From the NCBI RefSeq assembly GCF_045037415.1, contig NZ_CP173438.1: 64,000 nt of DNA, one strand, 5' to 3'. The position numbers are program-made. Source of the DNA: Escherichia coli. Its GTDB lineage: Bacteria; Pseudomonadota; Gammaproteobacteria; Enterobacterales; Enterobacteriaceae. Positions 3,001-5,120 of the stretch are shown here, piece after piece; the first letter of the stretch is position 1, and every line of letters begins with the position of its first letter.

Positions 3001-5120
3001 TCGCGCCAGAACCAACGTGCAATCATGCTTCCTCCTGCAACTGCCCGTTCACCAGCCGTAAGCAGCGGTCACAGCGTGCCGCCAGTTGCAGGTCGTGGGT
3101 CACCATAATCAACGTGGTGCCATGCTCACGGTTGAGGGAAAAAAGCAGATCGGCAATTTTATCGCCCGTCTGGCGGTCAAGGTTACCGGTGGGTTCGTCG
3201 GCAAACAGCACATCAGGTCGACCATTAAAGGCTCGCGCCAGCGCCACTCGTTGCTGTTCGCCGCCAGAAAGCTGTGCCGGAAGATGATCAAGACGTTTAC
3301 CCAGCCCTAACTGTTCGAGCAACGCTTTCGCCCCGTTACGACTTTCTGCGCTACTCTCACCGCGCAGCAGCGCCGGAAGCTCGACGTTTTCCAGCGCGTT
3401 AAGGGTAGGAATTAACATAAATGACTGAAAAACAAAGCCTACGTGCTTCGCGCGCAACTTTGCCCGCGCTTCTTCGTCCATATTATGTAGCGGTTGTCCC
3501 ACCAGACTCACTTCGCCACTGCTGCCGTCATCCAGCCCGGCGAGGATCGCCAGCAAGGTTGACTTACCCGATCCCGACTCGCCCACCAGTGCGATGGTCT
3601 CGCCACGTTTGACAACCAGCTCAACTCCGGTGAGGATGGAGAGTTCATGCTCCCCCTGACCGACGGACTTCTTAAGATGATGAACTTCAACAATGTTTTC
3701 CGCTGGCATTTGCCCTTCCTGTTCCTGGTCCTGTTAACCTTCCGTGCCGCCGCAGCGGACACGTTATTGATTCTGGGTGATAGCCTGAGCGCCGGGTATC
3801 GAATGTCTGCCAGCGCGGCCTGGCCTGCCTTGTTGAATGATAAGTGGCAGAGTAAAACGTCGGTAGTCAATGCCAGCATCAGCGGTGACACCTCGCAACA
3901 AGGGCTGGCGCGCCTTCCGGCTCTGCTGAAACAGCATCAGCCGCGCTGGGTGCTGGTTGAACTGGGCGGCAATGACGGTTTGCGTGGTTTTCAGCCACAG
4001 CAAACCGAGCAAACGCTGCGCCAGATTTTGCAGGATGTCAAAGCCGCCAACGCTGAACCATTGTTAATGCAAATACGTCTGCCTGCAAACTATGGTCGCC
4101 GTTATAATGAAGCCTTTAGCGCCATTTACCCCAAACTCGCCAAAGAGTTTGATGTTCCGCTGCTGCCCTTTTTTATGGAAGAGGTCTACCTCAAGCCACA
4201 ATGGATGCAGGATGACGGTATTCATCCCAACCGCGACGCCCAGCCGTTTATTGCCGACTGGATGGCGAAGCAGTTGCAGCCTTTAGTAAATCATGACTCA
4301 TAAAGCAACGGAGATCCTGACAGGTAAAGTTATGCAAAAATCGGTCTTAATTACCGGATGTTCCAGTGGTATTGGCCTGGAAAGCGCACTCGAATTAAAA
4401 CGCCAGGGTTTTCATGTGCTGGCAGGTTGCCGGAAACCGGATGATGTTGAGCGCATGAACAGCATGGGATTTACCGGCGTGTTGATCGATCTGGATTCGC
4501 CAGAAAGTGTTGATCGCGCAGCCGACGAAGTGATCGCCCTGACCGATAATTGTCTGTATGGGATCTTTAACAATGCCGGATTCGGCATGTATGGCCCCCT
4601 TTCCACCATCAGCCGTGCGCAGATGGAACAGCAGTTTTCCGCTAACTTTTTCGGCGCACACCAGCTCACCATGCGCCTGTTACCCGCGATGTTGCCGCAC
4701 CGTGAAGGGCGTATTGTGATGACCTCATCGGTGATGGGATTAATCTCCACACCGGGTCGTGGCGCTTACGCGGCCAGTAAATATGCGCTGGAGGCGTGGT
4801 CAGACGCACTGCGCATGGAGCTGCGCCACAGCGGAATTAAAGTCAGCCTGATCGAACCTGGTCCCATTCGTACTCGCTTCACCGACAACGTCAACCAGAC
4901 GCAAAGTGATAAACCAGTCGAAAATCCTGGCATCGCCGCCCGCTTTACGTTGGGACCGGAAGCGGTGGTCGGCAAAGTGCGCCATGCTTTTATTAGCGAG
5001 AAGCCGAAGATGCGCTATCCGGTGACGCTGGTGACCAGGGCGGTAATGGTGCTTAAGCGCCTGCTGCCGGGGCGCGTGATGGACAAAATATTGCAGGGGT
5101 GAGTTGAAGCGCGCGCTTAA

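Follow-up and report, generated by a model that had tools for sequence, protein, structure and literature searches.

Head-to-head overlap of the divergent tesA and ybbA coding sequences in Escherichia coli, and the conservation of their start junction

Introduction

Do tesA and ybbA, two Escherichia coli genes read from opposite strands, really share the DNA that encodes their first codons, and if so, does the overlap regulate the two genes or simply reflect compaction? Genuine divergent overlaps make up only about 1% of well-characterised prokaryotic overlaps (PMC2478687; PMC2174442), and one survey found all divergent overlaps longer than 60 bp to be misannotated (PMC2478687). The tesA-ybbA overlap is itself already annotated and published, and what we add is a modest comparative analysis. 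The paper on the YbbAP-TesA complex (PLoS Biol 2025, PMC12646458), which deals with the same genes, reports that YbbA, YbbP and TesA assemble with 2:1:1 stoichiometry, that part of the tesA-ybbO operon coincides with part of ybbA-ybbP, and that comparable layouts exist in other Gram-negative bacteria; the layout is taken there as a sign of functional linkage, without analysis of start codons, of the CATG junction described below or of embedded signals. In addition, ExcludonFinder (NAR 2025, PMC12288877) places tesA-ybbA among 16 divergent excludons present in at least 50% of 58 MG1655 transcriptomes. Positions below refer to the window, a stretch of 64,000 nucleotides of E. coli DNA (contig NZ_CP173438.1).

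Results

The genes at the locus and the segment that they share are as follows:
612-3026, minus strand: ybbP, 804 aa, membrane subunit of the YbbAP Type VII ABC transporter (ORF list, K-12 and PGAP annotation).
3023-3709, minus strand: ybbA, an ABC ATPase of 228 aa whose start ATG occupies 3709-3707.
3677-4303, plus strand: tesA, periplasmic GDSL thioesterase I / lysophospholipase L1, with 208 aa when read from ATG 3677 or 207 aa when read from ATG 3680.
4293-5102, plus strand: ybbO, NADP-dependent aldehyde reductase (ORF list, K-12 annotation, PMC12646458).
3677-3709, both strands: dual-coding segment in which the first 11 codons of tesA and of ybbA meet head to head.

The ybbP ATG overlaps the ybbA stop codon (ATGA, 3023-3026), and ybbO, downstream of tesA in a putative tesA-ybbO operon, starts within the last 11 nt of tesA (4293-4303). 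Chance is not an issue here, because both ORFs of the head-to-head pair are characterised genes whose products are real proteins, with solved structures (YbbA 9GE6-8; TesA 1IVN and others) and thousands of homologues each. TesA carries the residues of an SGNH/GDSL hydrolase, with G34-D35-S36, N99, D180 and H183 invariant among 30 homologues, and its close homologues belong to the precomputed Pfam families PF13472 and PF00657. Its N-terminus has a hydrophobic core preceded by a charged N-region, forming a 26-aa signal peptide; the mature protein runs from Ala27 (3755), and the solved TesA structures begin at that residue (ADTLL). YbbA has the Walker A motif GESGSGKST of an ABC ATPase at residues 43-51. 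All of its 228 residues align with chain B of 9GE6, no differences being shown; its N-terminal peptide is (M)PAENIVEVHHLK, and YbbA in PDB entries 9GE6-8 begins MPAENIVEV.

With tesA starting at ATG 3677, the coding sequences of tesA (3677→4303, plus strand) and ybbA (3709→3023, minus strand) have 33 nt (11 codons of each) in common, and the codons line up exactly in antisense: TesA MMNFNNVFRWH lies against YbbA HHVEVINEAPM, read backwards. Initiation of tesA at the second ATG, 3680, would shorten the shared stretch to 30 nt. The ORF list and the codon register thus bear out the 11-codon overlap that a preliminary description of this DNA had proposed for the 208-aa TesA. An alignment with K-12, which the same description had called for, gave the same sequence and the same annotation and nothing beyond: the window equals K-12 at each base from 3534 to 3867, and NC_000913.3 has tesA at 519139..519765 (minus strand) and ybbA at 519733..520419 (plus strand), an identical 33-nt overlap. 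NCBI PGAP, for an identical strain, places the tesA start at the next codon, so that the protein has 207 aa and 30 nt are shared. Of 5426 complete E. coli genomes, 5418 carry the region.

The start codons of both genes, like the promoters discussed below, are assigned here by comparison. On the ybbA side, ATG 3709 is the sole ATG, GTG or TTG between the upstream stop codon and the conserved N-terminus, and it is kept in all 18 Enterobacterales compared. On the tesA side, at least one of the adjacent ATGs at 3677 and 3680 is present in the same 18 of 18. The orthologue comparison supports both overlap-forming starts as probable true starts and not 5′ over-extensions. As mature TesA begins at Ala27, after cleavage of the signal peptide, N-terminal sequencing of the protein does not decide between tesA starts.

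Further evidence comes from synonymous sites, at which change is almost absent across 3677-3709. For the shared codons the synonymous-difference fraction comes to 0.07-0.08, compared with about 0.5 outside them, with a median of 0.00 in the overlap versus 0.53-0.54 in the rest of either gene (Mann-Whitney p = 2e-7, an optimistic value since the compared sequences are phylogenetically related). His10 and His11 of YbbA, whose codons lie antisense to the tesA ATGs, are encoded by CAT in 31 of 31 sequences and never by CAC. This dual coding explains the near-invariance in Enterobacterales of a segment that normally evolves fast, the signal-peptide N-region of TesA. Beyond the overlap, synonymous change is also reduced in ybbA codons 12-40 (0.39 versus 0.54, p = 2e-4, optimistic for the same reason), and no constraint on synonymous sites was seen in tesA codons 12-40.

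From these comparisons it is highly probable that tesA and ybbA are two real genes which truly overlap head to head, with ybbA starting at ATG 3709 and tesA at 3677 or 3680, so that the first 10-11 codons of each would occupy the same 30-33 bp. Predicted Shine-Dalgarno (SD) duplexes with the 3′ end of 16S rRNA have energies of -7.0 kcal/mol for ybbA, and of -3.2, -7.9 and -0.9 kcal/mol for tesA ATG 3677, ATG 3647 and TTG 3710, respectively. The tesA SD is therefore weak (-3.2) and the one at the upstream ATG is strong (-7.9), an observation that counts against the favoured tesA start. Leaderless mRNA in E. coli was also considered and was rejected, the ybbA SD being good.

The tesA ORF is open from 3647 to 4303 on the plus strand, with in-frame ATGs at 3647, 3677 and 3680:
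3647-3676, plus strand: upstream extension of the tesA ORF (218-aa form, MLPLTDGLLK...), with an SD-like GGAG at 3638-3641, 5 nt upstream; probably not the main start.

Were ATG 3647 the true start, driven by its strong GGAG, TesA would have 218 aa and the overlap would be 63 nt. This ATG has the best SD among the tesA candidates (-7.9 kcal/mol, 5-nt spacing), a start-capable codon occupies its position in 12 of the 18 Enterobacterales, and some gene callers predict the 218-aa protein. We nevertheless regard the long form as very unlikely. The codon is CTG, ACC, TCC, ATT or GTT in the other six, and in Rahnella bruchi a TAG directly precedes the ATG-ATG pair, placing a stop between the 3647 position and the pair. 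Both ATG 3647 and the SD-like string are antisense by-products of YbbA H21 and of the conserved L23-S24-I25-L26. The candidate tesA promoter described below would start transcription at about 3644 and leave no leader to hold this SD, and the 21-residue N-region of the long form, which contains Asp, would be atypical of signal peptides. The in-frame extension to 3647 that the preliminary description had noted therefore exists as an open frame, but it does not begin at a conserved start codon, and ATG 3647 was rejected as the main tesA start for that reason.

It is extremely unlikely that the overlap is an annotation artefact, with tesA truly starting at TTG 3710, immediately next to the start codon of ybbA (CAT|TTG), and the genes merely abutting. 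In favour of this reading, the TTG is in frame and present in 10 of 18 Enterobacterales, some deposited TesA proteins use it (194- and 197-aa forms; e.g. P0089, P0066), most other Gammaproteobacteria have the tesA start right at the ybbA start, and most long divergent overlaps in databases stem from misplaced start codons (PMC2478687). Against it, the position is TGG, GTG, CTC, TTA or TTT in 8 of 18 (a non-standard TGG, CTC, TTA or TTT in 7), it lacks an SD (-0.9 kcal/mol), its signal peptide (MPFLFLVLL...) would have no Lys or Arg, and no positive charge, in its N-region, the CAT-only YbbA histidines preserve the antisense tesA ATGs, and K-12 and PGAP alike annotate an overlapping tesA start. 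TTG 3710 was rejected as the main start as not conserved.

With the overlapping starts at 3709 and 3677 or 3680 as the favoured reading, how widely is such a junction kept? In all 80 loci fetched, ybbA is adjacent to tesA and divergent from it. Four of these were left out of the spacing analysis, two as broken or partial matches (L021, L053) and two with no start assigned by the rule (L027, L061). The starts overlap or lie within 11 nt of each other in 67 of 78 rows with assigned starts, these rows being related genomes, two of them E. coli references, and the start-codon rule being a heuristic in distant genomes. The commonest junction is a shared CATG (2-nt overlap), found in 23 rows; it spans 16 or more genera within the Gamma- and Betaproteobacteria and is retained though the N-terminal spacing ranges from 205 to 316 nt. 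Elsewhere the junction reads CATATG or CATCATG, Pseudomonas leaves 10 nt between the starts, and some overlaps span 30-75 nt. The overlap of 30-33 nt is specific to Enterobacterales, and within it Brenneria and Pectobacterium tolerate a 48-nt insertion. Near-zero spacing is not obligatory, as 11 of the 78 rows have true spacers of 23-442 nt. Judged by these sequences, the nearly spacer-free junction of lipid-cleaving hydrolase and transporter is an old and widely conserved arrangement, of which the E. coli overlap appears to be the local form.

As there is no intergenic DNA, the ribosome-binding site and promoter of each gene must lie inside the coding sequence of its partner, where the following candidates were found:
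3713-3720, minus strand: ybbA SD AGGAAGGG, within tesA codons 13-15 (P-F-L of the signal peptide); -7.0 kcal/mol.
3659-3667, plus strand: likely tesA ribosome-binding region ACCGACGGA, of putative function, with a weak SD GGA 9 nt before ATG 3677; in ybbA codons 15-17.
3609-3637, plus strand: candidate sigma-70 promoter of tesA, with -35 TTGACA (3609-3614), a 17-bp spacer and -10 GAGGAT (3632-3637); in ybbA codons 25-34.

At the ybbA SD site, tesA F14 is TTC in all 16 sequences that have Phe there. On the other strand, ybbA codons 15 and 17 show zero synonymous variation in 18 species, and codons 12-40 contain just five that are frozen, three of them being 32-34 (3608-3616, over TTGACA); the frozen codons coincide with the TTGACA candidate and the tesA ribosome-binding region. 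We hypothesize that TTGACA-17-GAGGAT is the tesA promoter, with a predicted transcription start at about 3644-3645. This candidate is the best position-weight-matrix (PWM) match in 3480-3676, with a score of 8.6 versus 6.1±1.8 for the best sites in random 200-nt windows, or about the 90th percentile; a stricter scan of 3300-4100 returned no site, this candidate included. For ybbA, the best score in a looser PWM scan of 3710-3950 was 4.8, below the background of 6.1±1.8, and no promoter is proposed; any ybbA transcript would have to begin at about 3721 or beyond. Those supplementary files of Cappable-seq (PMC4782308) and SMRT-Cappable-seq (PMC6131387) that were searched make no mention of mapped tesA or ybbA starts, and a literature phrase search for a tesA or ybbA promoter gave nothing beyond the papers already cited. 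Nor did any known RNA family match 2500-5500 when that segment was compared with Rfam at E ≤ 1. A bidirectional promoter with a shared -10 was rejected, as the 30-33 nt coding overlap puts each transcription start past the start codon of the partner. The preliminary description had both translation starts and promoters interleaved. For translation initiation this holds, the ybbA SD lying in tesA codons 13-15 and the tesA ribosome-binding region in ybbA codons 12-17; for promoters there is a candidate in the tesA direction and none recognisable for ybbA.

Discussion

These comparisons suggest a possible history. In what would be the ancestral-type state, seen in most Gammaproteobacteria, the start codons of the two genes adjoin or have CATG in common, and in the enterobacterial lineage the tesA start may have shifted about 10 codons upstream into ybbA, which would have given the signal peptide a charged N-region (MMNFNNVFRWH). 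The two promoters would then face each other, and the primary transcripts would be complementary across the overlap and both 5′ leaders; should tesA transcription begin near 3644 as predicted, this stretch would measure at least about 75-80 nt. The result would be the geometry of a divergent excludon.

As to why the overlap exists, we assign about an even chance to the reading that it is real yet serves no purpose in itself. With promoters inside the partner genes a spacer would be dispensable, deletion bias would have held the starts together, and in Enterobacterales a new upstream ATG would simply have been recruited for tesA. The variety of junctions fits such neutral compaction, as does the insertion tolerated within the overlap in Brenneria and Pectobacterium, and dual coding alone explains the conservation inside it. 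Against it, persistence this deep is unusual for so rare a type of overlap, and the CATG junction has survived many independent changes in N-terminal length.

The alternative, that the overlap is a selected regulatory device, is possible but doubtful. Here the facing promoters and complementary 5′ mRNA ends would make tesA and ybbAP interfere, either through collision or occlusion of RNA polymerase or through RNA duplexes that hide the two ribosome-binding sites and become substrates of RNase III, so that the hydrolase:transporter ratio is set or expression becomes mutually exclusive. Consistent with this, transcripts overlap in at least half of the 58 RNA-seq samples (PMC12288877), near-zero spacing is kept in at least 16 genera despite indels at both N-termini, each ribosome-binding site lies in a stretch complementary to the other mRNA, and the products form one complex, in which their ratio could matter (PMC12646458). 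However, we found no report of measured interference, and partners in a complex are expected to be co-expressed and not mutually exclusive. Moreover, the 11 lineages with true spacers do without the junction, the overlap varies from 2 to 75 nt so that no particular duplex is conserved, and the extra synonymous constraint is on one side only, upstream of tesA.

Mutual interference between tesA and ybbA, as the preliminary description had predicted, is plausible from the sequence, but that it is physiologically important and selected seems to us rather unlikely. It is improbable that the spacer-free junction is a selected coupling device which would tune or gate the TesA:YbbAP ratio through antisense pairing and promoter competition; if true, this would be a conserved case of regulation built into overlapping divergent start codons. 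The analysis shows the overlap, its conservation, the constraint of dual coding and the embedded ribosome-binding sites. We infer the tesA promoter position and any regulatory effect, and we estimate that the arrangement is mainly a stable compaction of a co-functioning pair, with antisense and promoter-competition effects modest at most.

Because the coding sequences overlap, transcripts of tesA and ybbA from opposite strands must overlap as well, and in this the pair is like other divergent excludons, whose transcripts overlap at their 5′ ends. In classical excludons, however, long untranslated regions overlap and expression is reciprocal, often by way of RNase III, whereas in tesA-ybbA the coding sequences and start codons themselves overlap. 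Coliphage 186 pR/pL is a case of face-to-face (convergent) promoter interference. The likeness is that promoters would fire at each other over a short distance, making collision and occlusion physically possible; the difference is that systems of the 186 type are switches between alternative programmes with mapped promoters, whereas tesA/ybbA has a predicted promoter for tesA only and products that act in one complex. A divergent pair is likewise served from a compact control region by bidirectional promoters that have one -10 in common (Warman et al., bioRxiv 10.1101/2020.01.31.928960), but their start sites lie about 18 bp apart and point away from each other, giving non-overlapping transcripts, whereas the tesA and ybbA start sites must cross. 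The same-strand ATGA and ATGxTGA overlaps at this locus (ybbA-ybbP, 3023-3026; tesA-ybbO, 4293-4303) are also compactions of co-acting genes, but these lie on one mRNA and allow translational coupling by ribosome reinitiation; tesA and ybbA are antisense, on two mRNAs, and have no such coupling.

The shared ends have a practical side. Any change to the 5′ end of tesA, by deletion, tagging or recoding, also reaches the start codon of ybbA, its ribosome-binding site and probably its promoter region, and changes to ybbA affect tesA likewise. Much engineering for fatty-acid production targets tesA, whose product acts in a complex with YbbAP; with the 5′ ends also shared, phenotypes assigned to one gene may stem from both. 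As a well-supported real example of a rare class, tesA-ybbA should also be a useful test for gene callers, from which TesA lengths of 194, 197, 204, 207, 208 and 218 aa have come.

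Overlap of the tesA and ybbA coding regions

The preliminary description had the divergent coding regions of tesA (periplasmic thioesterase I / lysophospholipase L1) and ybbA (an ABC ATPase) overlapping at their 5′ ends at 3677-3709, and this was borne out to the base by the ORF positions and by the K-12 annotation. The relevant entries of the ORF list are:

612..3026, minus strand: ybbP, membrane subunit gene of the YbbAP transporter
3023..3709, minus strand: ybbA
3647..4303, plus strand: tesA ORF, with in-frame ATGs at 3647, 3677 and 3680
4293..5102, plus strand: ybbO

When 3677 is taken as the start (208-aa TesA), the genes have 3677-3709 in common and their codons are superimposed exactly in antisense: when reverse-complemented, YbbA codons 11 to 1 (H-H-V-E-V-I-N-E-A-P-M) encode TesA M-M-N-F-N-N-V-F-R-W-H. 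Alignment with K-12, which had been proposed as a check, showed identity from 3534 to 3867, and the annotated overlap there is likewise 33 nt; PGAP places the tesA start one codon further downstream, giving 30 nt. The window sequence is 100% identical to several complete E. coli genomes, and the region was found in 5418 of 5426 such genomes. Same-strand compaction is seen on either side, with ybbA ending and ybbP starting on a common ATGA (3023-3026) and the first 11 nt of ybbO lying within the 3′ end of tesA (4293-4303); the last ybbA codon (228) has no synonymous variation across 18 species.

The overlap is already annotated and published. A paper that describes a 2:1:1 complex of YbbA, YbbP and TesA mentions the partial overlap of the tesA-ybbO and ybbA-ybbP operons and reports comparable gene layouts from other Gram-negative bacteria (PMC12646458). 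In the ExcludonFinder analysis (PMC12288877), tesA-ybbA is one of 16 pairs of divergent, overlapping transcripts detected in 50% or more of 58 MG1655 transcriptomes. Our comparisons add modestly to this a conserved CATG junction, an Enterobacterales-specific extension, and frozen synonymous sites at a candidate tesA promoter.

Start codons

Because start-codon errors frequently underlie divergent overlaps (PMC2478687), the starts were tested by comparison, using 80 loci obtained by a scan with a TesA alignment (one genome per species) and a codon-by-codon alignment of 18 Enterobacterales sequences. The ybbA ATG at 3709 has no competing start codon in the stretch from the upstream stop to the conserved N-terminus, is kept in 18/18 Enterobacterales, and is preceded by a Shine-Dalgarno sequence rated good (AGGAAGGG, -7.0 kcal/mol). 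For tesA, every one of the 18 species retains an ATG at the 3677 or 3680 position, and most retain both. Two real genes share 30-33 bp here, with each ribosome-binding site inside the other gene.

The non-overlapping alternative for tesA, TTG 3710, is replaced by TGG, GTG, CTC, TTA or TTT in 8/18 Enterobacterales, lacks a Shine-Dalgarno sequence, and would cost the signal-peptide N-region its sole Arg. The longer extension noted earlier does have its in-frame ATG at 3647, with a strong Shine-Dalgarno-like GGAG upstream, but that ATG is lost in 6 of the 18 species, in Rahnella bruchi a stop codon falls between that position and the ATG pair, and YbbA H21 and L23-L26, read in antisense, fully account for the ATG and the Shine-Dalgarno-like string. 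Since solved TesA structures begin at Ala27, the mature end, the N-terminal sequencing suggested earlier cannot reveal the initiation codon. Near-identical TesA orthologues in public databases (matches P0016-P0120) are annotated at 194, 197, 204, 207, 208, 214 and 218 aa; differing start-codon choice at the overlap accounts for the shortest (194, 197) and longest (218) of these, and the 204- and 214-aa Salmonella forms have the usual start and a different C-terminus.

Constraint and signals inside the partner gene

Synonymous differences are almost absent from the overlap, their fraction being 0.07-0.08 in shared codons versus about 0.5 elsewhere (median 0.00 versus 0.54; p = 2e-7, which is optimistic as kinship is ignored, yet the contrast is large). 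YbbA His10 and His11 are CAT in 31/31 cases and never CAC, so that the antisense tesA ATGs are preserved, and dual coding with ybbA likewise accounts for the near-invariant TesA N-region in Enterobacterales.

Beyond the shared segment, the ybbA Shine-Dalgarno sequence sits within tesA codons 13-15, and the tesA Phe14 codon is TTC in 16/16. Upstream of tesA, synonymous change is lowered across ybbA codons 12-40 (0.39 versus 0.54; p = 2e-4, again optimistic with kinship ignored), and is zero at codons 15 and 17 (3659-3667), likely the tesA ribosome-binding region, and at codons 32-34 (3608-3616), which read TTTGACAAC on the tesA strand. There, Val33 is GTC in 18/18 and Lys34 AAA in 15/15 Enterobacterales, opposite a TTGACA; third positions of nearby invariant Walker A residues vary freely. 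This TTGACA (3609-3614), with a 17-bp spacer and GAGGAT (3632-3637), is the sequence upstream of tesA that most resembles a promoter; it scores 8.6 against 6.1±1.8 for best matches in random 200-nt windows, only about the 90th percentile, and went unreported in a stricter promoter scan. We treat it as a hypothetical tesA promoter inside ybbA, with a predicted start near 3644. Unlike the tesA side, the ybbA side showed no sigma-70-like promoter in 3710-3950 on the minus strand, and tesA codons 12-40 were under no additional synonymous constraint. An Rfam scan of the region gave no family match.

The interleaving of promoters and translation starts proposed earlier is shown for the ribosome-binding sites; by geometry, both promoters must lie within the partner genes, at a predicted site in the case of tesA, and the mRNA 5′ ends must be complementary. 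The promoters would face each other across about 75 bp or more, and collisions or RNA duplexes over both ribosome-binding sites could reduce expression of one or both genes; the predicted mutual interference is a reasonable idea.

The junction across relatives

In 80/80 loci, the gene directly upstream of tesA is a divergent ybbA homologue. Spacing was measured from the YbbA Walker-A glycine codon to the TesA catalytic Asp codon; under a simple heuristic, the tesA start was taken as the most downstream ATG with Lys or Arg in the first 12 residues, and the ybbA start as whichever ATG had the best Shine-Dalgarno sequence. Starts were assigned in 78 rows, two of them E. coli references, and they overlap or lie at most 11 nt apart in 67; the other 11 have spacers of 23-442 nt.

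Table. Start-codon arrangements in the 67 rows
Shared CATG, 2-nt overlap: 23 loci; Vibrionaceae, Psychromonas, Alishewanella, Rheinheimera, Marinobacterium, Nitrincola, Halomonas, Oceanisphaera, Dokdonella, Cycloclasticus, Noviherbaspirillum, others
CATATG, gapless: 4 loci; Pseudoalteromonas, Aliidiomarina
1-3 nt apart: 6 loci; Pseudidiomarina, Bowmanella, others
10-11 nt apart: 10 loci; Pseudomonas (in-frame CATGG also present)
30-33 nt overlap: 19 loci; Enterobacterales
35-75 nt overlap: 5 loci; Shewanella, an Enterobacterales metagenome-assembled genome, Brenneria, Pectobacterium

The palindromic CATG common to both starts occurs in at least 16 genera (e.g. L024, L025, L028, L030, L041, L042, L063, L064, L074) and is kept despite a Walker-A-to-Asp distance of 205 to 316 nt, so the starts have stayed together while indels remodelled both N-termini. 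The overlap in E. coli seems to be derived from this old spacer-free layout by an extension, in which the tesA start would have shifted about 10 codons into ybbA, providing the charged N-region MMNFNNVFRWH. Real spacers, of 442 nt in Salinicola tamaricis (L067) and about 60-100 nt in Aeromonas (L029, L031) and Marinobacter (L056, L059), indicate that the spacer-free layout can be lost.

We consider stable compaction most likely, with interference that is modest at most: TesA, YbbA and YbbP work together as one complex, real spacers are tolerated in several lineages, and overlap length is variable. The deep persistence of the junction and the general rarity of divergent overlaps would fit a selected coupling role, which we regard as rather unlikely.

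In Brenneria (L014) and Pectobacterium (L015), a 48-nt insertion within the shared segment (about 3001-3090 in locus coordinates) is open in both frames and extends both proteins at once, TesA in its signal-peptide N-region and YbbA at its N-terminus; the apparent overlap, 50-75 nt, reaches past 60 nt, the length beyond which every divergent overlap proved to be a misannotation (PMC2478687). In Vibrio mexicanus (L027), spacing is 209 nt versus 208 in other Vibrio and no in-frame tesA ATG start is left, which could reflect a frameshift, a sequencing error or a pseudogene. In the symbiont Candidatus Pantoea persica (L021), the ybbA match is split in three, with short pieces at residues 1-26, 140-190 and 192-218, and the best alignment segment for tesA stops at residue 165, a pattern that suggests a decaying ybbA-tesA pair.
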